Positions 27,631 through 56,625 are shown, counted from the stretch's first letter. The stretch: DNA of 64,000 nt from Candidatus Bathyarchaeia archaeon (GCA_049522695.1 JBEKNP010000001.1:4261-68260), one strand, 5' to 3'. The notes: generated from the letters alone by a model not told the origin. Made by a program: numbers and translations.

Positions 27631-27681
27631 TTTGTTTTTTGGGTTGCTTATTTGAAGCAAAGCTTAAATCATTTGCAGGTT
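27631..27681 (+). repeat. 51-bp conserved block, copy A (inverted homolog at 56301-56351)
   Basis: TTTGTTTTTTGGGTTGCTT-N22-TTTGCAGGTT; same spacing as the reverse complement of 56301-56351. Confidence 0.75.
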
Positions 27682-27760
27682 GCGTATTAAAAAGATCTAA
27701 AACGTATTAAAACGTCCTAGAAAGTTCCTGTTCGTCCGAAAAAGGTTTGGAAAGGTTGAG
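27681..27760 (+). repeat. Degenerate 10-bp-period array A
   Basis: tgcgtattaa/aaagatctaa/aacgtattaa/aacgtcctag/aaagttcctg/ttcgtccgaa/aaaggtttgg/aaaggttgag. Confidence 0.5.
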
Positions 27761-27767
27761 GTTTAGG

Positions 27768-27932
27768 TTGCCGTTAATATGTAGAGTTACTTTTGATACG
27801 ATGTTGCAGAAGCAAAATCGCCTACAGGTTCCCAAGCTGGTGCGGCGGCAATATAAAGTGGAGGCGTCTGAGGTCTTAAGAGCCACCGTATATGTCGTTG
27901 GTTTGTTTGGTAATAGGGAGCGTTTTTTGGCT
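27768..27932 (+). pseudogene. Truncated AbrB/MazE-like (swapped-hairpin) gene, copy A
   Basis: MPLICRVTFDTMLQKQNRLQVPKLVRRQYKVEASEVLRATV...ERFLA, then runs into unrelated sequence; xQVPK.VR pattern typical of AbrB folds. Confidence 0.55.
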
Positions 27933-28035
27933 AGTGCGTTCTCAGTATATTTCTCTTATTTGGTTAGGTTCCTATTATCGCAAAGCTTATCAAATTCGAA
28001 CTACCTGAACGCCAGTTGCCATAGGAGAATAAACG

Positions 28036-28485
28036 GTGATTTCCAAGGTTAAAAAGAATGGTTTCATTCCTTCCGTTCTCTATAACAAAATATTGAGGTT
28101 GATGCCCATTGTATCGGTTGAAGCTGTAATAGTAATGGGCAATGCACTCTTGTTTCTAAAGAGGAAAAATCAGCCAGCTAAGGGGCAATGGTGGTTCCCT
28201 GGAGGCAGAATACATAAAGGCGAATCTTTTGAGGAAACGCTGTACCGCGAAGTCAAAGAAGAAACGAACCTAGAGATAAGCTCCTGCAAATTCATCAATG
28301 TCTACTCGAGAGTGTTCTCAGAGCGGCATGATATAACCATAGCCTACATATGCAAATGTAAAGAGGGCACCATAAAATTAGACAGCGAACACTCAGAGTA
28401 CAAACTGTTTAGAACCATGCCGACTGACTTGCACCCATACCTGCTAGAAACCATACGAGACTCAAAATGGAAAAAAGAATTGTAG
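28036..28485 (+). CDS. NUDIX hydrolase, GDP-mannose mannosyl hydrolase-like (copy 1)
   Basis: NQPAKGQWWFPGGRIHKGESFEETLYREVKEET Nudix box. Confidence 0.88.
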   Translation: MISKVKKNGFIPSVLYNKILRLMPIVSVEAVIVMGNALLFLKRKNQPAKGQWWFPGGRIHKGESFEETLYREVKEETNLEISSCKFINVYSRVFSERHDITIAYICKCKEGTIKLDSEHSEYKLFRTMPTDLHPYLLETIRDSKWKKEL

Positions 28486-28511
28486 TACCATTCAGCACCG
28501 TTCTGATGGTT

Positions 28512-28654
28512 CTATTTGCCTAAGCCTATGGCAGTAAATTTGAGTTTTTGGCTGAAGACTTCTGGATTGTAGATTCGTTCGCCGTCGAAGAGTGCGGGTT
28601 GCTTCATGTTTATGATGAACTCTTCGGACGTGATGCTTTGAATTCGCCCCATTC
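28512..28654 (-). pseudogene. 3'-end remnant of a second ugd gene
   Basis: EWGEFKASRP/EFIINMKQPALFDGERIYNPEVFSQKLKFTAIGLGK* (one frameshift) versus the intact ugd end EWPEFKRLTPADFTANMKKPILIDGRRIYDPETFNKKMKFIAIGLGQ*. Confidence 0.85.
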
Positions 28655-28698
28655 GACATCTTAAAATATAAAGTTACCAAGTGATATATGGTGATTTC

Positions 28699-28908
28699 AT
28701 GCCTGAAGGTGTTCTCTTGACTGATAACGACAGGGTTCTACTTGTGAAGGTGAGCAGCCTGCTTGAGGAAATAGTTGAGACTTTCAGCATATTGGAAGAT
28801 AGAAAAGCTATGTCATGTTTAAAGCAAGCAGAAAAAGATGTCAAAGCTGGAAGAGTTAGAGACTATGATGAATTTCTAAGGGAGCTGAAAAAAGCTGGAG
28901 AAATATAA
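28699..28908 (+). CDS. RelB-like antitoxin
   Basis: ETFSILED...LKQAEKDVKAGRVRDYDEFL pattern; overlaps the relE remnant. Confidence 0.75.
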   Translation: MPEGVLLTDNDRVLLVKVSSLLEEIVETFSILEDRKAMSCLKQAEKDVKAGRVRDYDEFLRELKKAGEI

Positions 28909-29149
28909 ACTTAGTTACAAGGACTTTTGAAAAAAATTTTCGAGCTCTTGACATCCAAACAAAAAGGAGAATAGATTCAACAATAAAAATGCTTGAAATT
29001 GACCCTTATGTTGGCAAGCCTCTGCGTGAAAATCTTGCGGGTAAGTGGTCACTTAGAGTCAGCGACTACAGAATCATCTACGAGATAAATGAAAATGAGA
29101 AAATAATAATGCTCTATGATACTGAGAATGGAAGAAAGTCTACAAATAA
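28895..29149 (+). pseudogene. RelE/ParE-family toxin with two frameshifts
   Basis: VTRTFEKNFRALD...DPYVGKPLRENLAGKWSLRVSDYRIIYEI; N-terminal KYKL and C-terminal KKVYK lie in other frames; no in-frame start. Confidence 0.82.
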
Positions 29150-29159
29150 AAGTAATAGA

Positions 29160-29295
29160 TAGGCTACAACAAGGTTAATGTTGTTGGTGGCAAGCTCGCA
29201 GGCTAAGGCGAAAAATTGTAAACGTTGGCAACGCTCAAGAAGTCACATACATGAGCTGGCAAAGAAAGTCAAAGAAATTACAAGATGCCAATCAC
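29160..29295 (+). pseudogene. Internal remnant of a second uxs gene
   Basis: LLVASSQAK/IVNVGNAQEVT/HELAKKVKEITRCQS (frameshifted) versus intact uxs LLIVASNVKGEVVNVGNAQEVTVLELAQKIKDITKCTS. Confidence 0.8.
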
Positions 29296-29432
29296 ATAAA
29301 ACGGTGCAAGTCCAACCTCAAATAAAAAAAGTACCGCTCAAAAACAAACAAACCACAGCAAACGAGCTATTTTTCGGATTAAGCTCTTAGGAAGATAGCA
29401 GATACATCGAATATGTTTAAGAAAAATGAATT

Positions 29433-29918
29433 TTATGCTAAAATTTGTTGCTTTAGATCTTTTTCATCTTTTGTAATGTGATATGTTTCTAACCCCATTT
29501 TATTGCTTGTTTTGGCGAGTTTTTCATCTGCGGTTATTAACGCATCGCTTTTGCTGTGCTTGCAAGTGGCTATTTGGAGTGCATCTGCTTCGTAGACGTG
29601 GTTGGTTATCACAGTGTCCCAAGTATCAGTGAGGACGGGTGTGTGTATGGGAATAACCTCTATGGCTTCGAGGCGCATTAGTTTTACGAGTTCATTGGCG
29701 AAATTTTTCAGTGTTTGGCTGAACTCTTCTTCGGTTAGCCAGGCTTTTCTGCGCCTTTCGTGGAGAACTCCTAATGCTTCTCCGATATTCCACAGCGAGA
29801 TAGATATTGTAAGTTCGCCTGTTTCGGCTTTATCGAAGATAATGTCGGTTGTTTCGGTGCCCGGTTCTGTCACATACCGCTTCAGTATGACGCTAGTGTC
29901 GAGGTAAAGTTTCCGCAA
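29433..29918 (-). CDS. vapC: VapC/PIN-domain toxin (intact)
   Basis: LYLDTSV, E in WNIGEAL, YEADALQIA and TADEKL: acidic tetrad present. Confidence 0.9.
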   Translation of the reverse strand: MRKLYLDTSVILKRYVTEPGTETTDIIFDKAETGELTISISLWNIGEALGVLHERRRKAWLTEEEFSQTLKNFANELVKLMRLEAIEVIPIHTPVLTDTWDTVITNHVYEADALQIATCKHSKSDALITADEKLAKTSNKMGLETYHITKDEKDLKQQILA

Positions 29919-30189
29919 CTCTTCTGCGCCTCATCTCTTTCACGATTTCCTTTGCTGGCGGTCCCTTGAGCGTAGTTCTTGTTTGTTTTATTTCCTGTGA
30001 AGAAGTTGTCCCCTTCACTGCGATGCCGGTTTTCTTAAACGCTGAAAGGATTTCGTCTTCCATGATTGTGGCTCGCAGGAGCTCTTCAACTTCGCTGCTT
30101 ATTTTTCGCAGGTTTCCGTGCTTCTGGAATACCTGCGTTTTAAATTTCAACCACACCGAATCATCCACGTAGACGCTTACTTTAGTCAA
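29893..30189 (-). CDS. RHH-type antitoxin (VapB-like)
   Basis: MTKVSVYVDDSVWLKFK RHH start; overlaps the PIN gene start. Confidence 0.8.
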   Translation of the reverse strand: MTKVSVYVDDSVWLKFKTQVFQKHGNLRKISSEVEELLRATIMEDEILSAFKKTGIAVKGTTSSQEIKQTRTTLKGPPAKEIVKEMRRRRVAETLPRH

Positions 30190-30207
30190 CTCTATACCTC
30201 TAAACTG

Positions 30208-30221
30208 GTTTACTGGTAAAC
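30208..30221. promoter_or_regulatory. Candidate autoregulatory operator of vapBC
   Basis: GTTTAC-TG-GTAAAC inverted repeat 19-32 nt upstream of the antitoxin start. Confidence 0.5.
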
Positions 30222-30246
30222 AGACATATAGGATTTTCGGAATGGA

Positions 30247-30336
30247 CTTGCTGAGTGGAAGCCAAACGTGGGCTTTGAAGAAGAACTCGAGAGAGCAATA
30301 ATGTGGTTTGTGCCAAAAAACGCAGCATATAGATAG
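30247..30336 (+). pseudogene. 3'-end remnant of a second uxs gene
   Basis: LAEWKPNVGFEEELERAIMWFVPKNAAYR* versus intact uxs LIGWKPNVCFEEGLKRTVSWFL*. Confidence 0.8.
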
Positions 30337-30602
30337 AGCAAGAAAAACGGAAAAATACGCATAAACCTGTCTGACCCTAACTATTCAGAGTCCCCATTTC
30401 CCGTTACAGTTTTCAAGCGTACAAACCACAAGAAGCAGAAAGCACCTATCACCTAACATATTAAACATTCAGGGCATTTGAGAAAAAGCCGAGACGCAAC
30501 TGTTGAGAACTGGAGCGATTCGACGGAAGGAGACTTTAAAGACTTAAAGTTTTATATATGCAGGTTCCTATAACCCAGTAAACTTTATAAAAGTGACTAA
30601 AG

Positions 30603-31319
30603 ATGGCGCTGAAAATTCGAACTGCTGTAGTGCTTGTGGGTGGGTCGGGGTTGCGCATGCGCCCTCTTACGGAAGACCTGCCCAAATGCATGATTCCCTT
30701 GCGCGGAAAACCTCTCCTGTACTGGACGCTCACCTGGCTTCGGGACCACGGCTTTGACCACGTGGTTCTTGGTGTATCTCACCGCAAAGAAGTAGTGATC
30801 AACTACGTTAAAGAAAACCCGCTGGGAATCAAAGTGGATTTCAGTGAGCATACACAGGAAGGTGAAACGGGAGAAGGCTTTCGGCTTGCCATCAAAAGGC
30901 ACGTAAACGACGAGAACTTCCTCGCCATGAACGGCGACGAACTGACCAATATGAATCTTGAGAAATTCGTCGATTTTCACTTTGCACAAAAAGGCATAGC
31001 AACAATAGCCGTGTCGCCCATGCGGTCACCATTCGCCGTTCTTGAGCTAAACGGAAACGATATCGTGGAATTCAAAGAGAAACCCTTACTTGAAGACAAG
31101 GTCATAAACGCAGGTATCTATGTTTTCAATCACGCTATTTGTGACTACTTGCCCATTACAGGCTCCATTGAGAAAACTGCGTTTCCTGCGCTCGCAGAAA
31201 AACGACTTCTCAAAGGATACCGGCTGGGCAAGGGTGAACGTTGGCTAACCATTAATAGCGTTAAAGATTTATCTATAGCCGAAAAAGAGTTTGAATCAAT
31301 ACGAGGTCTCAAAAAATGA
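30603..31319 (+). CDS. Sugar-phosphate nucleotidyltransferase (mannose-1-P guanylyltransferase-like)
   Basis: LVGGSGLRMRPLTEDLPKCMIP, MNGD, INAGIY. Confidence 0.8.
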   Translation: MALKIRTAVVLVGGSGLRMRPLTEDLPKCMIPLRGKPLLYWTLTWLRDHGFDHVVLGVSHRKEVVINYVKENPLGIKVDFSEHTQEGETGEGFRLAIKRHVNDENFLAMNGDELTNMNLEKFVDFHFAQKGIATIAVSPMRSPFAVLELNGNDIVEFKEKPLLEDKVINAGIYVFNHAICDYLPITGSIEKTAFPALAEKRLLKGYRLGKGERWLTINSVKDLSIAEKEFESIRGLKK

Positions 31320-32272
31320 AAGTTCTCATTACAGGTATACTGGGTTTCATAGGAAGCAATCTGGCAGAGAAACTTGTGACCAACGGGGACGAGGTTTACG
31401 GTCTTGTCCGTCGCGTAGCAAGCAGAAACTTGGATGCCCTTGGCGAAACAGTCAAAGACGTAACATTAGTATCAGGAGACATTACAGACTATGCGTCCAC
31501 CCGAAACGCCCTGAAAATCGCAAACCCAGACGTTGTTTTTCACTTAGCTGCCCTGAGTCCAGTTCGCGATTCTTTTGAGCGCCCATTCGAGTATCAACAG
31601 GCAAATTTTACAGGCACAATGAACGTAGCTCACGCTCTATTAGAACTGCCTGATCCCCAAAAGCGGAAGTTGATTGCCGCCTCAACCGCCGAAGTGTACG
31701 GTATACAGGGTAATGAACCGCTAAAAGAGACGCTTACACTGAAGCCGTCAAGTCCTTACGCCGTAACCAAGGCTGCAGGCGACTTGTACTTGCAGATGAT
31801 GTTCAACTCGTTCGATCTGCACGGCACCGTGATGAGACCAACTAACTCGTACGGCAGGAAATTTGAGAAGAATTTCATGGTTGAATACCTCATTACTCAG
31901 ATGTTGAAGGGCGAAAGTCTGTATATTGGCGCTCCTGACTCCGTGAGGGATTACATGTATGTGGACGACCACGTAAATGCTTATGTGCTTGTCGCCAAAA
32001 ACCCAAAGGCAAATGGACAGGTTTACAATGCGGGTACCGGGATCGGCGTAACAAATGGGCAACTGGCTGAAATGATAGCTCAGAAGGCAGGATACGACAC
32101 TAAGAAGATAAAGTTCGGTTCCTATCCTCCGGGCTACCCGCTTAGACCCTTATCATCTGACCAACCCTACCTTGTGCTCGACGCCACGAAAATCAAGAAA
32201 GACATCAACTGGTCATCAAAGTACAATCTAAGCGAAGGATTAGACAAAGTAATCGCGAACCTCAAAAACTGA
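31316..32272 (+). CDS. Extended SDR, GDP-sugar dehydratase/reductase family
   Basis: GILGFIG, HLAALSPV, STAEVYG, SPYAVTK, RPTNSYG, RDYMYV. Confidence 0.8.
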   Translation: MKVLITGILGFIGSNLAEKLVTNGDEVYGLVRRVASRNLDALGETVKDVTLVSGDITDYASTRNALKIANPDVVFHLAALSPVRDSFERPFEYQQANFTGTMNVAHALLELPDPQKRKLIAASTAEVYGIQGNEPLKETLTLKPSSPYAVTKAAGDLYLQMMFNSFDLHGTVMRPTNSYGRKFEKNFMVEYLITQMLKGESLYIGAPDSVRDYMYVDDHVNAYVLVAKNPKANGQVYNAGTGIGVTNGQLAEMIAQKAGYDTKKIKFGSYPPGYPLRPLSSDQPYLVLDATKIKKDINWSSKYNLSEGLDKVIANLKN

Positions 32273-32547
32273 AGTACCAAGGTGACCAAGTGGGTAGAAA
32301 ATACGGCGGTGAAGCATCGATTCAGCTTTAGGCAACTTAAGAAGCAACGCCATAGCAAAAATGACCAACATAAAAACCAACCATATAAACTAAAGAGAAA
32401 CTCGAAGATTCCAATCCTTTGCTATTTGGACAAATGGATCGAACATTATCAGGGTATTTCTCTCATGGTTCGGTGCCTCATACCGCAAAATTTATCAAAT
32501 TCGAACAAACTCCCATAAACGCAATCTGCGATAGGAGAATAAAATGG

Positions 32548-33047
32548 GTGAGTTCAGAGATTAAAAAAATGGTTCCATTCCTTCTGTTCGCTTCGAGCAA
32601 ATAATGAAGTTGATGCACATTGTATCGGTTGAAGCTGTAATAGTAATGGGCAATGCACTCTTGTTTTTAAAGAGGAAAAATCAGCCAGCTAAGGGGCAAT
32701 GGTGGTTCCCTGGAGGCAGAATACATAAAGGCGAATCTTTTGAGGAAACGCTGTACCGCGAAGTCAAAGAAGAAACAGGTCTGCAAATAATCGCCCATAG
32801 CTTTATAGGCGTATACTCAAGGGTTTTTCCTGAAAGACACGGCATAACAATAATTTACTTATGTAAATGCAAAGGCCCAGTAACACTTGACAACGAACAC
32901 TCAGAGTACAAACTGTTTAAAAACACCCCGTCCGATTTGCATCCTTACCTGCTTGAAACCATAAAAGATTCAGAATGGGAAAAAATCTGTAATACCATAC
33001 GAATTAGTTTACGTTATATTCCCTTTAATTGCAGTTTTCACTGTTGA
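32548..33047 (+). pseudogene. NUDIX hydrolase copy 2, 5' frameshift in an A7 run (can restart at ATG 32604)
   Basis: Alignment with copy 1 requires A8 at 32563-32569 but only 7 A are present; 159-nt core almost identical to 28107-28265. Confidence 0.7.
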
Positions 33048-33128
33048 CACCGAGAGTATCTTGTTGTTAAGAATGCCCTCGCATTAAAATTATGGATACA
33101 GTTGATTCAGCAAGTTTGAATAAATGAC

Positions 33129-34094
33129 TTAATTAAATTTCGGTTGATTCTGGTACCATTTAATTGTCTTTTGCAATCCAGTGAGAAGGTCTGTCTTTGC
33201 TTCAAAGCCGAATTCGTTTTTTGCCCTTGTTATATCTAGAAATCTTCGTGGTTGACCGTCGGGTCGTGAAGTATCCCAAGTTATTTTTCCCTCGAAACCT
33301 GTGATTTTGGCGACCATCTCAACTAGTTTTTTAATTGTTATTTCTTTTCCTGAACCGAGGTTGACTGGAGCTGGTTTGTCATATTTTTCGGTGGCTGCTA
33401 AAATTCCTTCAGCGGCGTCTTCTACATATAGGAATTCACGGGATGCGCTACCCGTTCCCCATATTGTTACTTGTTTTTCTCCTTTTTCCATCGCTTCGGT
33501 AAATTTTCTGACAAAGGCGGGTATAACGTGTGATGATTCTAGATCGAAATTGTCGCCTGAACCGTAGAGGTTTACTGGAAGCAAATAAATAATATTCATG
33601 CCATATTGCTGCCTGTAAGCTTGTGCCATTACAAGAAGCGCTTTCTTGGCTATGCCATAGGGAGCATTTGTTTCTTCAGGATACCCATTCCAAAGGTCAT
33701 CCTCTTTAAACGGCGTAGGCGTAAACTTTGGATAAGCGCATACCGTTCCGAGCTGAACGAATTTCTTCACTTTGGCAAGGCGCGCTGCCTCCATAAGTTG
33801 AGCGCCCATCATAATATTATCGTAGAACAGCGTTCCCGGATATTTTTGGTTAAATCCAATACCGCCTACGCGTGCAGCTAAATGAATAATTACGTCAGTG
33901 TTTTCCACAACTTTTTGGCAATTGGCCCAAACCCTTAAGTCTAAAAATTCGTGCTTCGGAATGTATATTTGGCTTGCTGAAACGCCTCGTTTTTGTAACA
34001 AGTTTTCAACTATATGTGTACCTAAAAATCCAGCTCCACCGGTTAGCAATATTTTTTTATTTTCCCAGAAATCTGTCAATCTATTTTCCACCAT
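33129..34094 (-). CDS. fcl: GDP-L-fucose synthase
   Basis: [54 protein letters not shown]. Confidence 0.92.
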
Positions 34095-35173
34095 CGGTTT
34101 GGAAATCCTTTTCTCAAGATCGCATCACCTTCACCTACGGGTTTTAATCCAGCTTTTCGCATGTCTGCATCAACCATAATTTTGACCAGGTCTTTGAAAC
34201 AAATCTTAGGTTTCCAACCAAAAATTTTCCTGATTTTACTTGAATCAGCTAACAAATCATCAGTTTCAGTCGGCCTAAAATATTTTTGGTCAACTCGTAC
34301 ATAGTCTTCCCAGCTCAGACCAACGTAAGAAAATGCTTGTTCAACGAATTCTCGTACAGAATGCTGTTCTCCAGTTCCAACTACGAAATCGTCTGCTTTT
34401 TCCTGTTGAAGAATTTGCCACATTATTTCAACATATTCTGGAGCAAACCCCCAGTCGCGCTTTGGCTCAAGATTACCAAGATAAAGGAATTGTTGTTTTT
34501 TGGCGATAATGTTGGCAATAGCCATGGTGATTTTTCTGGTAACAAATATTTCACCTCTACGCGGAGATTCATGGTTAAAAAGAATACCATTGCACGCAAA
34601 CAGTCCATAGCCAAGGCGATAGTTTTTTGTCATCCAATAAGCGTAAACTTTGGCCACAGCATAAGGACTTGTTGGACTAAAAATGGTCTTTTCATTTTGA
34701 GGTGAAGGAGCGCTTCCGAACATTTCGCTGCTCGAAGCTTGATAAAATTTAACATGATTACCGCTTCGTCTAACCGACTCCAATATTCTGGTTGTTCCAA
34801 GAGCAGTAACGTTCCCTGTATATTCGGGCATACTAAAACTCACATTAACATGACTCTGAGCACCCAAATGATAGATTTCATCAGGTTTTACGTTATACAA
34901 GATATTAGAAATCTGCTCTGAATCAGACAAATCACCATAATGAAGAAAAAGACGCGCATTAGGTTCATGAGGGTCAACATATAAGTGTTCTAATCTGCTT
35001 GTGTTAAAGGTGCTTGCCCTTCGAATTATACCGTGAACTTCATAGCTTTTTGAAAGCAAAAACTCAGTTAAATAAGATCCATCTTGACCGGTAATCCCAG
35101 TAAGAAACGCTCTTTTCAAATCAAAGCCTTCGTCAATCATTATGTGAATTATTAAAAGTATTAAAATTTGCAC
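34076..35173 (-). CDS. gmd: GDP-mannose 4,6-dehydratase (start probably downstream of 35173)
   Basis: [43 protein letters not shown]. Confidence 0.95.
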
Positions 35174-35421
35174 AATTTATAGGCTTCCTTTATAGAGTGC
35201 TTTTAAGATTTTAAAAACTTAAGAATGTCTTGGACGTACCTACTTTGCTCAGTGCCTAAACACTGCAAAATATAAACTAACGCATTTATCCTGTTTAAAT
35301 CGATTTTATTTTTTTATTCGTTGCCACTGAAATAACCGCAATACTTTTGTTTCATAGGTTATAATAGATTGGTAATAAGTACAGAAATGGAATAGTTTCC
35401 TCGGATGGAGATTCACTCGCA

Positions 35422-36198
35422 ATGAAAAAAAGTGCTGTAAAAGTAGTTTTATTATGTGGTGGAAAAGGAACGCGTCTAAGAGAAGAAACAGCATTTAAAC
35501 CAAAATGTCTAGTGGAAATTGGAGGAAAACCAATTCTATGGCATATAATGAAAATCTACTCTCATTTTGGTTTCAATAATTTTGTCATTTGTTTGGGATA
35601 TAAAGGAGATATGATAAGAGACTATTTTCAAAATTATTGTCTTTATAATAACGATACGACAATTGAAGTAGCGAAAAAAGAAATATACTTTGAAAATCGT
35701 ACATCAGAAGATTGGAATGTTACCCTTGCGGAAACAGGTGAAGAAACAAATACCGGTGGTAGAATAAAAAAGATAGAAAAATACATTGATACAGCCTTCT
35801 TCTTGGCTACGTACGGAGACGGAGTTGCTGACATAAACATATCCAATCTAATTAAATATCATCTAGAAAACCATAAAATTGCAACTTTAACGGGTTTACA
35901 TCCGACATCAAAATATGGCATCTTACAAATTGATAATGAGGGAACAGTCACATATTTCAAGGAAAAACCGACTCTAAAAGAGTGGGTTTCAGGCGGATTC
36001 TTTGTTTTCAACAAAAGAATATTCAATTACCTCACCGAAAGCTGTATTTTAGAAAGAGAACCATTTGAACATTTAGTAAAAGATAAAGAACTAAACGTTT
36101 ACAAACATGAAGGATTCTGGGGATCAATGGACACTTATAAGGATCTAGAATACCTAAACGATGTATGGCAAACGCAGAAAAAATGGAAAATGTGGTAA
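35422..36198 (+). CDS. rfbF: Glucose-1-phosphate cytidylyltransferase
   Basis: GGKGTRLREET..KPK..VEIGGKPILWHIM, TNTGGRIK, HEGFWGSMDT. Confidence 0.92.
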   Translation: MKKSAVKVVLLCGGKGTRLREETAFKPKCLVEIGGKPILWHIMKIYSHFGFNNFVICLGYKGDMIRDYFQNYCLYNNDTTIEVAKKEIYFENRTSEDWNVTLAETGEETNTGGRIKKIEKYIDTAFFLATYGDGVADINISNLIKYHLENHKIATLTGLHPTSKYGILQIDNEGTVTYFKEKPTLKEWVSGGFFVFNKRIFNYLTESCILEREPFEHLVKDKELNVYKHEGFWGSMDTYKDLEYLNDVWQTQKKWKMW

Positions 36199-38999: not shown

Positions 39000-39102
39000 T
39001 AATTATAAATCTGAATAAAAAAAGCATTAATTTCCTTTAAATTTTTGATGCAAATCAAGGAAGTAGCAACTAACATAAAAGCGCTTACTAAATTATTTTA
39101 GT

Positions 39103-40152: not shown

Positions 40153-40338
40153 TACCCTTCTTTCTTTAACTCATGTAAAGCGCTCAATATTTTAACTTTG
40201 TGTGTGCCACGAAAATTACAATTCTAATTTCTTCACTTGAGCTTATTGATGTTACATGCTTATCTTAAAAACCTGTATTAAATATAGTGCTATTCAAAAC
40301 CGTCATACTTTTATTTCGCAGATTAGCTTTTTACGATC

Positions 40339-43586: not shown

Positions 43587-43660
43587 TCAAATTAATCTCG
43601 GTGCTCAATGTTAATGTTTTAGTGTTCGTAGCGAATGAGTGCTAATGTCTATTCAGTCGT

Positions 43661-47062: not shown

Positions 47063-47064
47063 CG

Positions 47065-48225: not shown

Positions 48226-48228
48226 TTG

Positions 48229-49074
48229 CTATCGGACTCGTTTAGAGCACGGGACTGGACCATCAATCCAAAGTTGTAGTTTCAATGTAAAGGTTAGTAG
48301 AAAGAGATTCGTTACAGTTTGAATTAATTTTACTTTGCTCTTCCGTCCTGGCGGCTCTGTCACACGTACTGGAACCTCCCTTATCGACATATTTGCCCTA
48401 TCTGCGAGAAGCATGAGCTCAGTGTTAAAGAACCACCCATCACTCGTTAGGTAAGGCAATAGAGCGATAAACGCCTCCTTTCTCACCGCCTTTATTCCGC
48501 AAATATCACTATATTCGTATGAAAACAACAGCTTAATCCAGTAATGAAACGCTCTAGAAAGAAGACGCCTTAATGGCTTTGCGTCGGTACATGATCCAAC
48601 CGTAAAACGGGACCCAAAACAAACATCATATCCCTCTTGAGCCGCTTGAATTACCCGTTTCACATCATCAAAATCAAAAGGAAGGTCACCATCTATATGG
48701 CATTGAATGTCGGCACTACTGTTTTCCCAAGCTACCTTAAGCGCGATACCAACGCCCTTGCGATCTATTCTAAGGTATTTGACCTCCGGATATGATTCCG
48801 CTAACATCTGACCTATTTTCGGAGTCATATCTGTTGAAAAATTATCAGCAATAACAATCTCCCATTTGCATTCGAATGCTGATTTCATGAAAGAGAGCAG
48901 TCTTAGAACATTCTGCTCCAAAACTGATTCCTCGTTATAAACGGGAAGCACAATTGACAAGCTTTCATTATTCATAGTCATGTGAAACGATTTCATGGAT
49001 TCATAGGAACATCCTGTACTAGCGGACAATAATCCCAATTCAGGCGTTCCCAAAGAGCACTTTCTCATGATCAC
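48229..49074 (-). CDS. GT2, dolichol-phosphate sugar synthase-like
   Basis: SIVLPVYNEE, ADNFSTD, GVGIAL, DGD, GSRF, DICGIKA, FFNTEL. Confidence 0.85.
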   Translation of the reverse strand: MIMRKCSLGTPELGLLSASTGCSYESMKSFHMTMNNESLSIVLPVYNEESVLEQNVLRLLSFMKSAFECKWEIVIADNFSTDMTPKIGQMLAESYPEVKYLRIDRKGVGIALKVAWENSSADIQCHIDGDLPFDFDDVKRVIQAAQEGYDVCFGSRFTVGSCTDAKPLRRLLSRAFHYWIKLLFSYEYSDICGIKAVRKEAFIALLPYLTSDGWFFNTELMLLADRANMSIREVPVRVTEPPGRKSKVKLIQTVTNLFLLTFTLKLQLWIDGPVPCSKRVR

Positions 49075-50135
49075 TTACTCAAACTCCCCACAACGAGTGC
49101 CACAGGCATCGTTTATTACAATGGTGGGCGAGTTACAGCGAAAGAATTTGGATTTACACTGATGCATACGCCTTATAATTCTTCTATGAATATTCGCCCA
49201 GTCCCAGCTTGGTGTTAACGAGTTTAGATTTGTCAAAAGATCACGAACCGCCTCAATATTTTCATTACGTAAACTCCTCACTGGCTTTTCTGTTGTTTAT
49301 GCTTCTTGGACTATAAAGTTTGTGTATATAAGCACTTAAAAAAGTTAGTGGCAAAAAAACAAGAAATAAGGTTTCAAATATTTGTTGATCATCAGAATTT
49401 TTTTCTTTCTTTAATAAGATCCCCATTTTGGTATTTCGCCTCTTTCTTTATTTAGAAAATCCAGCAAAAAGGTATCTCAGGATCAATTTTACTATAAAGC
49501 AATGAGATACTAAGCAAAGTAACCTGACGGAAAGCTCGAGTCGAGTTCATGACGCAAAATTCAAAAAAAATCGATTAAACTAATTCAAATTCACTTCATC
49601 AAGTATTTTCCTATTTGTTGTAGTCGAACAACTACACAGTTTTTTGTAAATATTTAAAAAACTTTTTTTGACTTATAGGTCACCTTGATAAAATAAGTGA
49701 CTGACTAAGATGAGTTTTAATGCACTCTATAAGAACTGATGCTAAATGAACCTCAATTGCAAAAACGTGGCATTAGCGAAAGGAAGAAACAGAAATGACC
49801 ATAAAAATAATAAAAATAATTAAGAAATGGCGGTTCAAGAATAGAAACTTTGTATACCCACAATGCATGAATGTTTTTCCTAAAAAAACTGCGACGACAA
49901 GCGGAGATAGAGGAACCGCATATGGTATTCATGTTCATTGTAAAAAGTGCGGGCAGATAGTTGCATATAGCAATTAAAGAGTTAAAGTTTTCAGTCTAAC
50001 TTGCCGCTTTATGAAAAAGCAGTTTGGCGGTTTTTCATTAATTTTAAGAGAAAAAATCAGGCATGGTTTCAGCGAGCTAATAACATTAAACCGATCAAGT
50101 TTAACGTTATTCAATTTGGCCTAGGAAAAAAATAC

Positions 50136-51302
50136 TTATGTTTTTTGGGCTCTTTCCTTTGCACGTTTTATTTCATTCACAACTTGATTAATTTGATCCT
50201 CGGTTATTGTGGGAAATATGGGTAAAGATAAAATTTCATTATATATTTGTTCTGCAACAGGGAAATCACCAATGCTGTGATGTACTAGATTTTTATAGAA
50301 TGTCAATAAATGCAACGGCGTATAATGGACACTTAACCCTATTTTCTTCTCGGAGAGTTCCAAGAATAACTTATTCCTACTAATACCAAACTTTTTTTCG
50401 AGAACCCTAATGACATATAAATGGTATGAATGTGTTCTATCTTTCGCTTCAAATGGCGTGATAATTCCGTCAATTTCCTTTAGACGATCTGAATATTGGT
50501 TTGCAGCATTGACTCGTAGTCTGTTAATATCGCTCAATCTTTTTAATTGTGATGTGCCTAGTACGGCTTGAACCTCATTTAACCTGTAATTATAGCCTAA
50601 ATCTATTACGTCATAATACCATGCAGCCCCACTCTCTCGATCGACAGCACTTCGTGTCATTCCATGTTCTCGCAGGATTTTAGCTCTTCTAAATAGATCT
50701 TCGTTATTTGTAACGAACATCCCCCCCTCAAGGGTAGTTAAAATCTTAGTTGGATAAAAACTGAAGCAACCTATGGTACCGATGGTTCCAGCTTTCCTTT
50801 TCAGATAGGTTGCACCAACTGTATGAGCACAATCCTCAACCACGGGCAGCTTATGATCTTTAGCAATCTCCATTATTTCTTTCATGTCGCATGGCTGTCC
50901 ACCATAATGAACTACTATAATGGCTTTAGTTTTTTCAGAAATTTTATCAATGATTGATTTTGGTGAAATATTATATGTTTTTTCATCGATGTCAGCGAAA
51001 ACAGGCTTTGCCCCACAGAAAATAGGTGCATTGGCCGTCGCGGCAAAAGTTAAGACCGGAACAATAACTTCGTCGCCAGGACCAATATCCAATACTCTCA
51101 TGGCTAAGTGTAATGCGGCTGTGCAACTATTAACGGAAATAGCGTACTTTGAACCGATAACATTTGCGAAGAGCCCTTCAAATTCAACCGCTTTTGGTCC
51201 CCCAGTTAACCAACGGGATTGTAAAGCATTATAGACAGCTTCTTTATCTGCATCGTTTATCCAGGGAGCAAAGAACGGAATACCATCTTTATTTATAGCC
51301 AC
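50136..51302 (-). CDS. DegT/DnrJ/PseC-type PLP sugar aminotransferase
   Basis: NSCTAALHLA, EDCAH, SFYPTKILTTLEGG (Schiff-base Lys), GYNYRL. Confidence 0.92.
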   Translation of the reverse strand: MAINKDGIPFFAPWINDADKEAVYNALQSRWLTGGPKAVEFEGLFANVIGSKYAISVNSCTAALHLAMRVLDIGPGDEVIVPVLTFAATANAPIFCGAKPVFADIDEKTYNISPKSIIDKISEKTKAIIVVHYGGQPCDMKEIMEIAKDHKLPVVEDCAHTVGATYLKRKAGTIGTIGCFSFYPTKILTTLEGGMFVTNNEDLFRRAKILREHGMTRSAVDRESGAAWYYDVIDLGYNYRLNEVQAVLGTSQLKRLSDINRLRVNAANQYSDRLKEIDGIITPFEAKDRTHSYHLYVIRVLEKKFGISRNKLFLELSEKKIGLSVHYTPLHLLTFYKNLVHHSIGDFPVAEQIYNEILSLPIFPTITEDQINQVVNEIKRAKERAQKT

Positions 51303-51537
51303 AGCCTCACTCTCAAGTGTAAGTTTTACATTGAATTATGATTAAGATGACTGATTGTTATTAACCCTTCCACCCAGCCATGCTTCACAAATAGTAGGTG
51401 AATGCAAGTAGGGCTCGCAGTCTTAAGAAAAGCCATATCATAACTTAATCGGCTTACGTAAAACTTCAGCCTCACTGGTCTCGTCATAATCCAAACAAAG
51501 CACCTAATTTAAAATTACAACTGTAAACTCAAGTGGC

Positions 51538-51849
51538 CTATTGCATATCTGGCGAATCATCACGTCTTTTACGATATTTTATAAAGCAAATAAGCTGTAG
51601 AATAACTCCAGCAATCAACGCGTAATAGGCATAAATAGCCAATGAATCTGCCAAGGATGACAAACCGATAAAAGAACAAACAGCCGTTGCCATTAAAAAT
51701 AATATGCATAACCCTATTAATGGAAGACCCCAATTCGCTTCAATGTATCCTTTAAAAGAGGTAAGAAATTTCTTAAGGTAACGGTCATCCATAATTCGCA
51801 CACTAATAATGCTTATAAAGCGGTAAAGCGAGAATTTAAAATTTTCCAT
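51538..51849 (-). CDS. Small two-TM membrane protein
   Basis: NWGLPLI...LAIYAYYALIAGVILQL hydrophobic pair. Confidence 0.6.
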   Translation of the reverse strand: MENFKFSLYRFISIISVRIMDDRYLKKFLTSFKGYIEANWGLPLIGLCILFLMATAVCSFIGLSSLADSLAIYAYYALIAGVILQLICFIKYRKRRDDSPDMQ

Positions 51850-52062
51850 GATTTAACCTAAATTGCTTTGGACAAAGCTATAATCAAAAAACCAAAACGT
51901 CCTCACTATATGTAATTAACGTCCTGTTCCTTTGTTAACTTTATTGCTAATTAGCAACAAGAAAATCATTGCCCAATCAACAAGAGCTTTGGCTATATTG
52001 CTAATCACATTTGAAATTTTAGTCGAATTTTTTAAGGCTATCAGATTTTGAACCTTACTAAG

Positions 52063-53586
52063 TTAACTTGGAGCATAGCTGTAAATAGCCATCTTTCCAC
52101 TGCTATAGACTTCATGAAATGACGGTGACACAGTTGGTTGCCCATACCACCCTTGCCCATTTACCCACCATATAAGGTATATTTGGCTATGCCCTTCTTG
52201 AGTAGCGGTCGTTGCCGCATTGACAGGGTCGCCAAATCCGTAGTTCATGACCTGATTACTGTTAAGAGTCAACAACGCCCAACCATAAAACGCTGTATGC
52301 GTAAGCAAAAGCGCACTGCTATTCAAGTTATTTTTGAACCATTGTAGGGCGTTGACTGTGTCATGGCAGTCAGTTATCGATATCGTATTCTGCAACATCG
52401 AAATTGGGATTTGATTCGCGTAACTGTTGAAATGCTCCGAATTAAAGTAAAAGAAGGGGTTTTCCGAAGTCATAAAAATGAAGCCAAAGCTTAGAATAGC
52501 CGTTGATAAAATAAGGTATAATACCGCAATTCTGTGCACAGTAAACTTAAAACTTTTCCATTTAATTGATTTAAGCCTGCTTAAAGCGTCTGTTGCGTAA
52601 AATGCAAGCGGATAAGTAAGTAGTAATACCCATCGATAAGGGCTTACAGAAGAGAGTGGAATAAACAACAAAATAAAACTCAAAAGAAGCCAAGACCTGA
52701 GCTGAAGATTCCCAAATCGCCAAAGACCTACCGCCACCAAGGGCAACAAAGGCAAGAAACAATACAAAAAGAAACCCCCTTCACTTATCAACATAGATTG
52801 ATAGGAAGCAAAACCAGTCCAACTAGCCAAAGACGACGAATTTATTGAGTAACCAAGGACGCCAGACTTTGCCACACCACTTAAATAAACGATTACAAAA
52901 TAGACCGCAGCAGGCAAAGAAACCACAACCAGATCAATTGACCACTTAAAATCTCTACGGAACACGCTATAGGCAACTGTACCAATTATAGCTCCAAACA
53001 TGAGTACCGCTACAAGCTGATGGGATAAAACCACAGCTATCATTGCTAACGAGAGAACAACATAGTGCTTCCAAGAACTGTCCTTCCGGTTGATAAGAGA
53101 CATAAGCAACGTAAGGACCACAAAAAAGAAAACTAAACTAAGCTCTTCTCGAAGTTGATCCCAAGACGCTCTTAAAGCCACAAAATAAATTGTCCCTAAA
53201 AGAGCAACAAACGTACTTTTAGTTGGCGACCACCCCAACCCCCTTTTTGCATATGCAAATATTGACAGCCCTAAGAAACCGAGAAGCAGCGGCGAAATAA
53301 TTTTAAGCGCAAAAACCGGTGACCCGCCTACACCAACTATTAACATTAGTATCGAGTAGAACAGTGGCGCAGTTGCGAGAAAGTTCCAAAGGTTAATGCC
53401 ATTATGTAGCCATAGCAAAGTATCTGGAACATAAACACCTAGGGTATCGAAGCCAAGGATATAGGGCCCCATTAAAATCTCAGGTATAAACCTCACAGCT
53501 AATGGTATAACAAATGCGAGAGCGGGAAAAATAATATAACGATTGCGGGTAAGCCAATCCTTTAGAGGATTATGAATATGCGGCAC
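52063..53586 (-). CDS. Polytopic membrane protein, putative GT-C glycosyltransferase
   Basis: First-loop GFDT..Y acidic motif, about 12 TM, short soluble C-terminal domain. Confidence 0.55.
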   Translation of the reverse strand: MPHIHNPLKDWLTRNRYIIFPALAFVIPLAVRFIPEILMGPYILGFDTLGVYVPDTLLWLHNGINLWNFLATAPLFYSILMLIVGVGGSPVFALKIISPLLLGFLGLSIFAYAKRGLGWSPTKSTFVALLGTIYFVALRASWDQLREELSLVFFFVVLTLLMSLINRKDSSWKHYVVLSLAMIAVVLSHQLVAVLMFGAIIGTVAYSVFRRDFKWSIDLVVVSLPAAVYFVIVYLSGVAKSGVLGYSINSSSLASWTGFASYQSMLISEGGFFLYCFLPLLPLVAVGLWRFGNLQLRSWLLLSFILLFIPLSSVSPYRWVLLLTYPLAFYATDALSRLKSIKWKSFKFTVHRIAVLYLILSTAILSFGFIFMTSENPFFYFNSEHFNSYANQIPISMLQNTISITDCHDTVNALQWFKNNLNSSALLLTHTAFYGWALLTLNSNQVMNYGFGDPVNAATTATQEGHSQIYLIWWVNGQGWYGQPTVSPSFHEVYSSGKMAIYSYAPS

Positions 53587-53746
53587 CTTTTATTCTCCAG
53601 ATTTATGGACAAGTATAGATGAGATTGTATTAAACTTTGATTGTATGTCTAAATGCCTTGTGCTTGTAAAAGATGTGACACCCTTTAAAAAAATGCCAGA
53701 ATTAAAAAGTGGTCAGCTGGTTGCTCAGATTCCATGTTTTCAGGTG

Positions 53747-55276
53747 CTATGGATTATTCTGTACGCCGTAGAGTGCGGCGTCTAAGATTAAACCATTCGT
53801 GTTACTGCCAATATTTTGAACTAAAGTTCCATTATTGTCTGCACCGTCAGAGTAACCTTTTGTGGGGGTTGGAAGGCTTTTCTCAAGATCGTCAACCATG
53901 TTGCGAGCAAACGCCGTGTTATACAAAGCGAGGAAACTAAATGCTATTTTATTATAGAAAACAGGACTCATGCCTAAATGTTTGTTTTGTGCACTGTTCA
54001 ATATTGTCCAGGTATCGCCATTAGGCAAAACAACATACTCGTATATGAAGCCTGAAGGACTATTTCCTTCACTAAAAGCCGCATAATGCCCCGTCGCATT
54101 ATAATAGGCTTCACTAGCCAAATAGACTTGCTTCGCCAAAGCTATTAGTTGAGAACTATTGTTGTTAAGTTCAAAAACTGAACAATAAAGCGGGTCACCT
54201 GTAATTGTGGCTTTAGGCAACGAAACATTGCCATACGTTGTTACATTTCCAGCTGACAAAATATTTTTCAGTATTGTACTTGGAGCATTAGTAAGACTAT
54301 GGAAGAAGCTTGCGAAACCGCTCCAGCAATAGTAAGCATAAATACTAGTTGATGTCTGGCTATCAGCCGCAACTTCTGGCACCAAAGCAGTATAGTTCGA
54401 TCTGTTACCAGATTCATCGTAAACTATGTTATTTATTTGTGGTGCTAAACTACTATTGAAAGTCCTAAGATTGTTGAGAGCAACAAACAACCTTCCCGTA
54501 TCAATAAGATCAACGATTTCCGGAGATGACATAAAAGAATCATCTTTTCCAGTTGCAGCATCGTAGAACTGGTACGGATAACTAGCATTGTTAAGAGGCC
54601 GAGTTTCCAGGAAAGTTAAAACATCAGCTATTCTTGCAGAAAAGTTCCAAGCGCTATCATTACCAATTAAACCTAGTTTCTGCGCGTCAATGACAGCTTG
54701 GATATAAACACCTAAATCCCAATCAGTGAAATAGGTATAGTCTGTACCTCCAGCGTAAGGAAGCCCAGTATGTGGATCAACACCTACGCCAGGCTGAAAA
54801 TATGCCCAAGCATTCGCCGCCACCTGCAGCCAGACAGCACTGGTGATAGTTTGAGCAGACTCTATTAAGCCAGGAAGCTTAGGCGGACCTGGATTAATGG
54901 CTTGAGACAAACTTGAACCCGTCTGTTTTGACGGTTGAGCTGTGGCTGGCGATGAGGTACCATTCTCGTGATTTGTGGCAGTGGGTGAGGGAGTGGGCGA
55001 CGGAGTGGGTGACGGAGTCTCTGTCGAGTTATCGCTGCTTTGCGGCTCAACATTAGCCTTGGTAACGCTTTGTTTTGGCAAAAACGCAAAAACAGAAATC
55101 AACAAAACGGCTACAATCGCAACAGCTATCAGGCACTTTGCTTTCCTGCTAAACCGCCAGTGATTTAGCCGAAAAAAATCTTTTTTTGACTCAGCTTTAA
55201 GAGATGTCTCTAAGGAAACTAGCCAAACTAATGGAAGAGAGCAAATTTTTTTGAAATTAATTAAAGCATTTGTCAT
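53747..55276 (-). CDS. Membrane-anchored DUF3131/glycoamylase-like protein (putative (alpha/alpha)6 glycosidase)
   Basis: N-terminal TM, Pro/Thr/Ser linker, then AWAYF...TGL...TDWDLGVYI.A...A.KLGLI and IDTGRL. Confidence 0.65.
   Translation of the reverse strand: MTNALINFKKICSLPLVWLVSLETSLKAESKKDFFRLNHWRFSRKAKCLIAVAIVAVLLISVFAFLPKQSVTKANVEPQSSDNSTETPSPTPSPTPSPTATNHENGTSSPATAQPSKQTGSSLSQAINPGPPKLPGLIESAQTITSAVWLQVAANAWAYFQPGVGVDPHTGLPYAGGTDYTYFTDWDLGVYIQAVIDAQKLGLIGNDSAWNFSARIADVLTFLETRPLNNASYPYQFYDAATGKDDSFMSSPEIVDLIDTGRLFVALNNLRTFNSSLAPQINNIVYDESGNRSNYTALVPEVAADSQTSTSIYAYYCWSGFASFFHSLTNAPSTILKNILSAGNVTTYGNVSLPKATITGDPLYCSVFELNNNSSQLIALAKQVYLASEAYYNATGHYAAFSEGNSPSGFIYEYVVLPNGDTWTILNSAQNKHLGMSPVFYNKIAFSFLALYNTAFARNMVDDLEKSLPTPTKGYSDGADNNGTLVQNIGSNTNGLILDAALYGVQNNP
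54980..55018 (-). repeat. 12-bp tandem repeat encoding a TPSP linker
   Basis: agtgggtgaggg/agtgggcgacgg/agtgggtgacgg. Confidence 0.85.
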
Positions 55277-55434
55277 TGTAACAGGACTGTCTCTTTTCAG
55301 GTTAGTGTAATTCCTCTTTCTCTGAAGAGTAGAAATACACGATTTCTAAAACAACCATAGTAAAAGAGAGATTTAAAACTATGTGGCAAAGAAATTCAAA
55401 ACTGACTATTTTTTTTAATTAAAAAACATACAGC

Positions 55435-55950
55435 TCAACCCAAGTTTATTGAGTAGTGCTTGCTATGTTCCTTTCGCTTTTGCGCCAACAATTCTTCCAC
55501 TAATTGTATTGTTTTTTTGGAATAGATTAGAGCAACTATTTTGTTCCAATCAAAGTCTTTTCTTGAATTATATGTGGATATTCTTCTTTGGAAAACATGA
55601 CTAGCTTGTCTGAACCGTGCAGAATTCGGAAGTCTCAGAGGGGTTGTCTGGGTGTTCATGGTGAGTGCTTGTGATTTCACAAACTTGCCTAATGAAATAG
55701 TCAGGGTATCCAAGCTTTTTAAGGAGGGCTGTTGCAATTTGTGGACCTTTTTCGTATTGTTCCTTCAGATGTTTCCTTCAATGTCATGCAGAATGATTGA
55801 AGTCAATGTTAACTCGTGTATTTCCGGTTGACCACAAATACCTTTTGTGCTACGTTCAAGACCCTTCCGGTATGTGCTACATCGAAATCGTTTATTTCTA
55901 AATAGGGGTGTTGCCGACTCAAACAATCTGTCAACAATTATTTTTCAACA
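55435..55950 (-). pseudogene. HD-domain phosphohydrolase pseudogene
   Basis: Fragments in several frames: FDVAHTGRVL, SIILHDI, EKGPQIA..LLKKLGYP, THHEHP, SDKL. Confidence 0.7.
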
Positions 55951-56154
55951 CCGTTAACTCTTTAGGTAATCTTTCTGCACGCTTATTTAGCTCTTCATTC
56001 TATTCAACCTGTTTGTTTAGGGCCTCACCCAGCAGATTGTTCCGACAATTGCTACAGCTTTCATAGAACAAAAATATCCACAAGCAAGCTTCACTGTTGC
56101 AACTTTGCGTCCCATCAATTGCCCTTTGTAATAAGTTGAAGCAGTAGTAGCTCA

Positions 56155-56235
56155 TTAAGAATAAACGACACTTTTCTGCACTTTAATGCATCCCTCAAGA
56201 GGCCTTTTGAATGTTACGCTTCCAGTTAAAGGCAT
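56155..56235 (-). pseudogene. Truncated AbrB/MazE-like gene, copy B
   Basis: MPLTGSVTFKRPLEGCIKVQKSVVYS*; aligns with copy A at MPL, VTF, L and Q. Confidence 0.5.
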
Positions 56236-56300
56236 ACTTACCGCGACTTTTCTTGACTTTTTTTTGACTTATATTGACTCTTATTGACTTATTTTAACTT
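56235..56300. repeat. Helically phased (T)TGACT array B
   Basis: GACT-like cores start at 56235, 56245, 56255, 56266, 56276, 56286 and 56296 (10-11 bp spacing). Confidence 0.8.
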
Positions 56301-56351
56301 AACCTGCAAACAATTCAAACCCTAAAACAAAAAAGCAACCCAAAACACAAA
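56301..56351 (-). repeat. 51-bp conserved block, copy B
   Basis: Reverse complement TTTGTGTTTTGGGTTGCTT-N22-TTTGCAGGTT. Confidence 0.75.
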
Positions 56352-56625
56352 GCAAAAAATTCCGCGCCAAAAAGAATAGTCAATAAAGTCACAACCACAA
56401 CATTAAGGCATGCCACGAGAAAGCACAAAGCGTTCTTAGCTTAAAAAAGCCCGTCAAATATAACTGCATGTTTAGTGGAATTTAACCTCTAAAGGTTTAA
56501 GCAAAGTAGCCATTAGTTATTGCTAAGCTATTGACATTTACTGTGGCTGGCCAATTGTAGTAACAGCCGCTTCACTTTGAATTCTTATTTAGAAGCATTG
56601 CATTTTGTTTTAGTCGTGAAACATA

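Follow-up and report, generated by a model that had tools for sequence, protein, structure and literature searches.

A dispersed family of predicted promoter, box-array and regulator-gene cassettes in peat and soil Bathyarchaeia, partly carried by a MITE-type element

The DNA analysed here is a stretch of 64,000 nucleotides (the window) from a Candidatus Bathyarchaeia archaeon (GCA_049522695.1 JBEKNP010000001.1:4261-68260), in which two look-alike elements in inverted orientation lie on either side of a variable glycan island of about 28.5 kb. Each element is composed of a conserved sequence block, an array of short boxes and a truncated gene whose product begins MPL...VTF, and a first-pass annotation had proposed that the pair marks the borders of the island. 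We found that both elements belong to a family dispersed throughout the genome, and we consider it probable (about 0.7) that this family consists of autoregulated operator cassettes comparable to that of MraZ, which have been spread in part by an element of the miniature inverted-repeat transposable element (MITE) or mobile insertion cassette (MIC) type; the regulatory mechanism is inferred. The source genome (G000) is a 2.80-Mb metagenome-assembled genome (MAG) of 130 contigs with 42% G+C and 96.5% completeness, and the window is part of its 93-kb contig C1; related contigs and relatives of the protein come from peat and soil. In what follows, C-numbers denote contigs, L-numbers denote fetched loci, and G003, G004, G016, G019, G042, G045 and G047 are related genomes, of which the nearest (G019, G047 and G004) are about 88-93% identical to G000.

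The block pattern TTTTGGGTTGCTT-N(20-24)-TTTGCAGGTT matches the window exactly twice, at 27637-27681 (+) and 56301-56345 (-), with a spacer of 22 nt in both cases, and shuffled window sequences gave no match, i.e. none is expected by chance. With this pattern occurring twice, each time with phased boxes and a gene of one family, the earlier description of two inverted elements of the same layout holds, and the array period that it had put at about 10 bp is indeed 10 bp. To count the copies in the whole genome, we employed a relaxed regular expression and then an nhmmer profile built from the copies thus obtained (cut-off E<0.01); these gave 43 and 96 blocks, respectively; the latter number amounts to about one block every 29 kb, six of the 96 being on C1, and 74 of the 79 strong copies are intergenic. 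The block was found in numerous congeneric species but in none of the order's other families, and the cassette family is restricted to a single group of Bathyarchaeia from peat and soil. Many contigs of the MAG end within a block or array (C4:32, C20:32, C69:51, C69:12051, C70:11692, C72:239, C55:122, C55:18682, C36:76 and C81:76), so that the cassettes often interrupt the assembly of this MAG, which probably contains more than 96 copies. No account of the block-array-gene family was found in the searched literature, which agrees with the earlier suggestion of an undescribed dispersed element made up of a gene for a DNA-binding protein, a phased array and a conserved block.

A complete cassette comprises a constant block of about 65 bp, 3-14 boxes of 10 bp and a gene for a protein of about 90 aa. 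The block contains T-runs, TGTTTTGGGTTGCTTTTTTG, a stretch resembling a TFB recognition element and TATA box (BRE/TATA) and TTTGCAGGTTG, with the cross-species consensus aatTTTTgttct.t.TGTTTTGGGTTGCTTTTTTG.tttagggcTTgaattgtTTGcAGGtTG, and it is directly followed by at least three boxes phased at 10-11 bp in 74 of 90 cases. By tblastn and the family hidden Markov model (HMM), four intact genes (C1:68662, C1:91105, C21:4864 and C13:1201) and about a dozen broken ones were identified in the source genome, all of them with block and array upstream; a recognisable gene follows about 16 of the 96 blocks. The same linkage was observed at 80 gene loci of other Bathyarchaeia MAGs, fetched with the family alignment A1: 66 of them have a block at a distance of 50-190 nt on the 5' side of the gene, and each of the 82 block hits has the same direction as its gene. 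The block is thus what the upstream regions of a scattered paralogue family have in common, the very alternative that the first-pass annotation had set against its own border proposal. No neighbour gene is conserved among the 80 loci, and therefore there is no toxin or operon partner; a toxin-antitoxin module was rejected on this ground. The intact gene nearest to the window encodes P0001, a protein of 90 aa beginning MPLTGRVEFKRPLEGCNKVQIPK, whose subfamily stands in conserved synteny in 8 genomes. Its cassette (C1:68527-68931, equal to window coordinates 64267-64671, +) begins 267 nt after the last position of the window; it has the opposite orientation to the right window copy, from which it is 8 kb distant, and shares 88% identity with that copy over 204 nt. 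A vapBC-like AbrB/PIN pair follows the P0001 cassette.

The boxes fall into several types across the loci, for example AAGTCnnAAA, GTACACAGAA/GGACAAGGAA, GACATTATT, ATTTGTCnn, GCGTTnnnn, AGGCAAnnA, GGTTAnnnn and GTCCTAGAA, and the box logo of the P0001-like subfamily (70 units from 13 loci) reads GTcAAaAaAA. The type changes with the protein subfamily while the period remains 10: proteins with ...EGCNKVQVPKIIRWQFK are accompanied by AAGTC boxes, those with ...IGKGNRIQIPTLIRWEFK by GGTTA, ...FTxxLQSxNTVQIPK by GCGTT, ...LQSFNKVQ by CGACT, ...AIQQGNRLQIPKA by CGTCA and ...GDRVQIPKIIRWEFK by TTGACA. The 5-mer spectra of the arrays correlated with protein identity (Mantel r 0.47, a value reached by 0 of 2000 permutations), and at 65-80% protein identity the similarity of the arrays was 0.41, versus a background of 0.14 for the non-coding flank upstream of the block. 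At L056, L077 and L103, which come from other Bathyarchaeia MAGs, three to five block-array units, each with another box type and 140-280 bp apart, are stacked upstream of one regulator gene, which suggests cross-regulation or serial decay of tandem genes. Other readings of the arrays were discarded. A structured RNA does not fit the fold z-scores of block plus array (-0.03 and -0.18) or the Rfam scan of the window, in which no family was found; a CsrA-type sponge RNA with GGA-rich boxes does not fit the box classes, most of which lack GGA; and replication-origin iterons or a plasmid centromere do not fit at least 74 arrays in one genome with no conserved Orc, Rep or ParA neighbour.

The protein shows two (V/I)xIPK half-motifs in alignment A1, i.e. 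two AbrB-type half-domains in one chain. Its AlphaFold (AF2) model (predicted local distance difference test, pLDDT, 86) is made of duplicated strand-strand-helix-strand units, and with this predicted model as query the best Foldseek match in the PDB was PhS018 (2GLW; template-modelling score, TM, 0.75/0.73; root-mean-square deviation 2.5 Å over 85 columns; 25% identity; E 1.4e-4), while the chains of Mycoplasma genitalium MraZ, free and on a 4-box promoter, ranked third and fourth with TM 0.42-0.49, below significance. Profile A1 searched against PDB sequences matched 2GLW as its sole hit below 0.01, at a marginal E of 0.0014 (query 7-73 to chain 5-72). A Pfam scan of three family members gave a single match, to MraZ (PF02381), with 17.4 bits, where the cut-off is 23 (E 0.004), and none of 120 database relatives carries a precomputed Pfam domain. 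We concluded that the protein is a predicted PhS018-type single-chain swapped-hairpin (AbrB/MraZ-like) DNA-binding barrel, by which the earlier guess of an AbrB or swapped-hairpin fold is borne out for the intact family members. PhS018 is an uncharacterised archaeal swapped-hairpin/AbrB-like protein and a predicted DNA binder (PMC4333400). It is the best structural and the only significant PDB profile match and shares with the family its length, internal duplication and archaeal origin; neither a DNA target nor a genomic context is on record for PhS018, whereas for the Bathyarchaeia family a candidate target is obvious.

The closest parallel in layout is MraZ, a tandem-AbrB protein that regulates the dcw operon of bacteria and binds cooperatively, one subunit per box, to 3-4 GTG(G/T) boxes separated by 6-nt spacers and repeated every 10 bp, the transcription start site (TSS) lying in box 1 (PMC12957436; M. 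genitalium structures 9SZ7 and 9QLG). In both systems a small protein combines two AbrB-type half-domains within a single chain, short direct repeats at intervals of 10 bp lie downstream of the promoter and ahead of the start codon of the regulator itself (here at 66 of the 80 genes), and the TSS falls within the first box, as a prediction in the case of the Bathyarchaeia family. There are also clear differences. The family is archaeal, its members have 90 aa compared with about 150 aa and lack the MraZ oligomerisation extension, the structural likeness is weak, and no mraW or division (dcw) cluster was seen nearby at the 80 loci; in addition, the arrays have 3-14 boxes instead of 3-4, the many paralogues each have their own box core, and binding is a prediction. 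Since neither the Pfam threshold nor the dcw context agrees with membership, we do not regard the family as part of MraZ.

It is this parallel layout that leads us to read the cassette as promoter, operator array and gene for an autorepressor. The block would serve as the promoter region. The BRE/TATA consensus upstream of the tRNA genes of the source genome is approximately aAAGCTtTAAAta, and block subtype 2, to which the left window copy belongs, has AAAGCTTAAATC at the corresponding position; transcription starting about 23 nt 3' of this stretch would begin in the first box, so that the boxes would begin about at the predicted TSS. The protein would bind with one molecule per 10-bp box along one helix face and repress its own promoter, as MraZ does, and each paralogue would have its own box sequence. 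Elements bounded by terminal inverted repeats (TIRs) carry block and array, some with and some without the gene, and have dispersed through intergenic DNA. Bacterial promoter readings of the block (sigma-54, or the Bacteroidetes -33/-7 type) were ruled out, the genome being archaeal, and the block was rejected as the promoter of the next host gene, because only 32 of 68 next open reading frames (ORFs) of at least 90 aa are co-directional with it by crude gene calls. The block (GGGTTGC...AAATCGTTTGCAGGTTG; GGTTGC ... AATCGTTTGCAGGTT) resembles the 5' end of the gene (GGTTGCCGTTAAC, AGGTTGCCGTTAAC...AAT CGT TTA CAG GTT, encoding NRLQV), and in nested copies (C47:20400, C32:29393 and C45:15917) a new array begins directly after the NRLQV codon run; an origin of the block as a shortened copy of the gene's 5' end, or recombination at this point, may lie behind the resemblance.

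Mobility of part of the family is the best-supported component of this reading, and it is evident from inverted end repeats, 8-bp target-site duplications (TSDs) and empty sites. In one aligned subfamily the unit has a length of about 330 bp. Its left end, GTGTGTATTTAGC, lies about 115 nt in front of the block, and its right end, GGCTAAATACAAAC, repeats the left one in inverted orientation; the elements measure 180-490 bp, or about 590 bp with the gene. The 14-bp TIRs, GTGTGTATTTAGCC and its complement, match at 14 of 14 positions in C3:125-504 and at 13 of 14 in C62:3435-3757, and TIR-like hits numbered 53 versus 10 in a reversed control. Profiles of the arms found 33 left and 19 right arms in the source genome, and one left-arm and one right-arm hit at the 80 foreign gene loci. 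For TSDs only exact-end matches were accepted; a scoring with ±3-nt wobble was dropped as uninformative, because controls in AT-rich DNA scored equally high. Perfect 8-bp TSDs were observed at the exact ends of the copies on C8, C52, C30, C9 and C19 (the five sequences being CTAAAAAG, AATAACTC, TAATTATT, GATTTTTA and CCTATTAA), and near-perfect ones in four more (7/8 on C62; 6/8 on C17, C3 and C45).

Comparison with relatives revealed the corresponding empty sites. The 179-bp copy at C30:9652-9830, whose arms are 94% identical to those of block-bearing copies, no longer contains the block core or the array. In the sister species G019 its empty site is exact to the base: TTTAAACTA[TAATTATT]TTTATTAAC occurs there with the 8-mer once, compared with one 8-mer on either side of the copy in G000. 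In no relative with both flanks does the orthologous spacer contain the block-bearing copy of C8. The C21 cassette, whose gene is intact and whose ends are TIR-like, lies within a 788-bp insertion missing in G016, G042, G003 and G045, and homology with relatives stops exactly at the TIR-like end. In the same insertion an unrelated repeat of about 190 bp adjoins the cassette (C21:5199-5390; L164 1500-1690), with copies in several genus genomes (G047, G019, G016 and G004). For the C45 copy, which stands upstream of citrate synthase, the region is not collinear in the relatives. Fragments from the 5' end of the gene persist in some MITE-type copies (C45:15917 and C13:18561), which fits an origin of these copies by deletion from a parent with the gene. 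The small number of blocks with a gene, together with the random direction of the next ORF, indicates that the gene-less copies are self-contained units dropped into intergenic DNA. One MITE-type copy (C17:1884-2280, -) lies directly upstream of a tRNA-Gly(TCC) gene, and the terminal repeat at its right end, GGCTAAATAC, resembles the BRE/TATA of the genome and stands some 60 nt ahead of the tRNA.

MITEs and MICs are non-autonomous TIR elements of bacteria and archaea, and the Correia elements of Neisseria carry a promoter and IHF sites. The present elements resemble them in size, in TIRs, in a TSD of fixed length, in the lack of an internal transposase, in dozens of intergenic copies, in empty sites and in a cargo of regulatory DNA. 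They differ in that the cargo is a promoter with a multi-box operator for a specific family of paralogous regulators, sometimes together with the regulator gene, and in that copies with similar arms carry differing box types. No report of MITEs in Bathyarchaeia was found in the searched literature. A further step, that PhS018-type regulators travel with their promoter and multi-box operator as the cargo of small TIR elements and that MITE derivatives have seeded dozens of responsive cassettes, is put forward here as a tentative suggestion that is less likely than not.

The features of the two window copies are collected in Table 1. The left copy is a gene-type cassette of the subtype with a strong BRE/TATA that has lost the second half of its gene. 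Its block is diverged in the 5' third and contains GGGTTGC, the BRE/TATA-like AAAGCTTAAATC at 27659-27670 and TTTGCAGGTT at 27672-27681; the array units are, in order, CGTATTAAAA AGATCTAAAA CGTATTAAAA CGTCCTAGAA AGTTCCTGTT CGTCCGAAAA. The pseudogene retains the first 55 codons without the second half-domain and is 41% identical to an intact paralogue (tblastn). No MITE arms were found at this copy by the arm-profile search. The right copy is an old MITE-type copy retaining 20 codons. Aligned to the arm-bearing copies on C8, C45, C52 and C87, it has a degenerate terminal repeat, TTATATTTGACGGGC, at 56463-56449, and its array (56300-56236, -) reads AAGTTAAAAT AAGTCAATAAG AGTCAATAT AAGTCAAAAAA AAGTCAAGAA AAGTCGCGGT. 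The gene fragment, 85% identical to P0001 over 20 aa (tblastn), switches in the alignment into the MITE tail common to gene-less copies and then reaches a stop; the tails of the copies used for comparison (C52, C8 and C45) end in GGGCAATTGAGGCTAAATACAAAC. The left and right copies are unlike in block-spacer subtype, box type and gene subfamily, and have only the block of about 50 bp in common.

Table 1. Parts of the two cassette copies in the window
Feature	Position	Strand	Evidence and remarks
Left block (predicted promoter region)	27633-27685	+	nhmmer block profile, model positions 21-73, E 5e-10; exact pattern match
Left array	27683-27742	+	six 10-bp boxes, core CGT(A/C), two degenerate; read from sequence
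Left pseudogene, ~90-aa PhS018/MraZ-like family	27768-27932	+	TTG start, LPLICRVTFDTMLQKQNRLQVPKLVRRQYK...; family HMM positions 1-55, domain E 3.7e-12
Right copy, MITE-like left arm	56372-56463	-	nhmmer left-arm profile, model positions 6-99, E 1.1e-5
Right block, subtype GTTTTAGGGTTTGAATTG	56298-56366	-	nhmmer block profile, model positions 4-72, E 1.4e-11; exact pattern match
Right array	56236-56300	-	six to seven AAGT(C/T) boxes; box type also upstream of intact P0001 and orthologues
Right truncated gene	56155-56235	-	ATG at 56235; 20 family codons (MPLTGSVTFKRPLEGCIKVQ); stop ~56155
Right copy, decayed MITE-like right tail	56100-56154	-	...GCTACTACTGCTTCAACTTATTACAAAGGGCAATTGATGGG; terminal GGCTAAATAC repeat lost

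Several observations weigh against the reading of the family as mobile autoregulated operator cassettes. Only four intact genes face about 90 blocks, and the abundant box classes GTACACAGAAG/GGACAAGGAA, GACATTATT and GCGTT have no intact cognate gene in the source MAG. The covariation of boxes and proteins partly reflects common descent, and thus lends support and not proof. With regard to the promoter, the commoner block subtype 1 has only a weak TATA-like stretch, GGGCTTGAATTG, and the best-conserved block positions, TGGGTTGC and TTGCAGG, differ from BRE/TATA, from which it follows that the block probably does more than bind TBP and TFB; moreover, given the counts of co-directional neighbours above, the gene-less copies are not obviously host-gene promoters. 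With regard to mobility, no TSD is present at either window copy, a recognisable left arm and tail exist in the right copy only, and the TIRs there are decayed. A search of TIR pairs 100-6000 bp apart and of multi-copy ORFs in the source MAG, which is fragmented, yielded no transposase whose ends match: none of the TIR pairs has a large ORF between its members, and the multi-copy ORFs lack these ends. An ORF of about 246 aa resembling a fragment of an IS5/Harbinger-type DDE transposase is present in two copies (one at C62:13487-14227), and its ends match none of the cassette TIRs.

Two other explanations of the array were compared with autoregulation. Since the block and array sit within TIR-bounded elements with TSDs and empty sites, the protein might be an accessory of transposition that coats the internal array to assemble or silence the transposition complex, the cutting being done by a transposase encoded elsewhere; TnpA of maize En/Spm is known to bind subterminal repeats. 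The intact gene copy on C21, itself an insertion with TIR-like ends, the 5' gene fragments kept in MITE-type copies and the random orientation of gene-less copies with respect to host genes are all in keeping with such a role. However, arms are mostly absent from the foreign gene loci, the P0001 subfamily keeps its place in the genome as a resident regulator would, the array is one-sided and in a single orientation, the array-less 179-bp copy shows a clean insertion, so that the array is not needed in cis, and no transposase was found in the source MAG; we therefore regard the accessory role as unlikely. An explanation independent of the protein, in which phased A/T tracts bend the DNA as part of chromatin or promoter architecture, or the block drives a repeat-containing non-coding RNA, and the small gene does not read the boxes, would account for the intrinsic curvature predicted from A- or T-rich spacers at an exact 10-bp period, for the many arrays of the GTAC/GGAC class that end in GTATTTTT, a possible archaeal oligo-T terminator, and for the fact that most arrays have no gene behind them. 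It appears very unlikely to us, as the best-conserved part of the box is the G/C-containing core and not the A/T spacer, the core switches with the protein subfamily, RNA structure signal and Rfam matches are lacking, and relatives by fold (the AbrB family and MraZ) bind DNA, MraZ on just such boxes. Autoregulation by box-specific proteins remains the reading that we prefer.

Lastly, the border proposal holds that the 28.5-kb island ends at the inverted copies or recombines at them, and that surface-glycan genes are shuffled through them by inversion, excision or integration. Its appeal lies at the right-hand side, where a synteny break is real. The backbone gene at 56626-57972 is retained by all 41 genus genomes, and in G047, G016, G003 and G019 its island-side neighbours are orthologues of contig C3 (from 49.2 to 41.7 kb) and not of the window, which places a rearrangement breakpoint within about 100 nt of the right copy (window ~56470-56600). 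A small opposite-strand ORF stands between the two in these four genomes and is missing in the source genome. In the sister species G016 the same spacer holds another, independent block and array (L152, G016:C6 ~288200-288260; boxes AAAAGGTG/AAATGGT), pointing toward the orthologue of the backbone gene, and the spacer may be a repeated landing site. Dispersed repeats are in general able to mediate rearrangements, and the 88% identity of the hybrid right copy to the inverted P0001 cassette makes inter-copy recombination plausible. Such recombination among dispersed copies may have had a part in the right-hand break; an inversion between these two copies was rejected as its cause, because the neighbour in the relatives maps to C3.

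At the left-hand side the expected break does not coincide with the copy: the galU-uxs homology with relatives ends at ~26.7 kb, about 930 nt before the block, and only the right copy lies close to a synteny break. The intervening 0.9 kb is filled by small toxin-antitoxin-like ORFs (26625-27562, -), where synteny is first lost on this side. Copies do stand at the two sites named by the first-pass annotation, but sugar genes are also present outside the bracket (ugd-galU-uxs at 23.4-26.7 kb). Nor is the pair special to the island: from the genomic density 2.2 copies are expected per 64-kb window and at least two with a probability of 0.64, the 28.6 kb between the window copies equals the mean spacing genome-wide, and a third copy, with an intact gene, follows just past the window. 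No tRNA was found in the window, no recombinase is linked to the elements, no direct repeats are present (the window copies being inverted), the copies are of different subtypes, and the interior of the island is mosaic in relatives. In having two related sequences with variable genes between them and one of them at a synteny break, the arrangement resembles att sites or composite transposons bounded by insertion sequences; it differs in the inverted orientation, the core of only about 50 bp, the lack of integrase and tRNA, the left copy lying off the break and a pairing expected by chance. That the two copies mark or define the island borders is not supported, and we consider a role in integration or recombination there highly improbable.

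For the glycan island the outcome is deflationary, and the pair should not be used to draw its borders or to deduce an integration mechanism. For the protein family it provides a DNA target that can be tested for the PhS018-type barrel, with one protein predicted per 10-bp box; the fold was solved in 2006 and is called uncharacterised to this day; and a large set of paralogous regulators and operators whose box cores have diverged together offers a natural series on how AbrB-type proteins read DNA. To judge from the TSDs and the base-exact empty site, uncultured Bathyarchaeia carry active-looking MITE-type elements with a cargo of regulatory DNA, and as these repeats break assemblies, they matter for the binning and annotation of abundant peat archaea. 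If the suggestion of travelling regulators is true, this would be the first archaeal transposable element that distributes ready-made binding arrays for a specific transcription-factor family, and the orphan PhS018 fold would have a DNA target.

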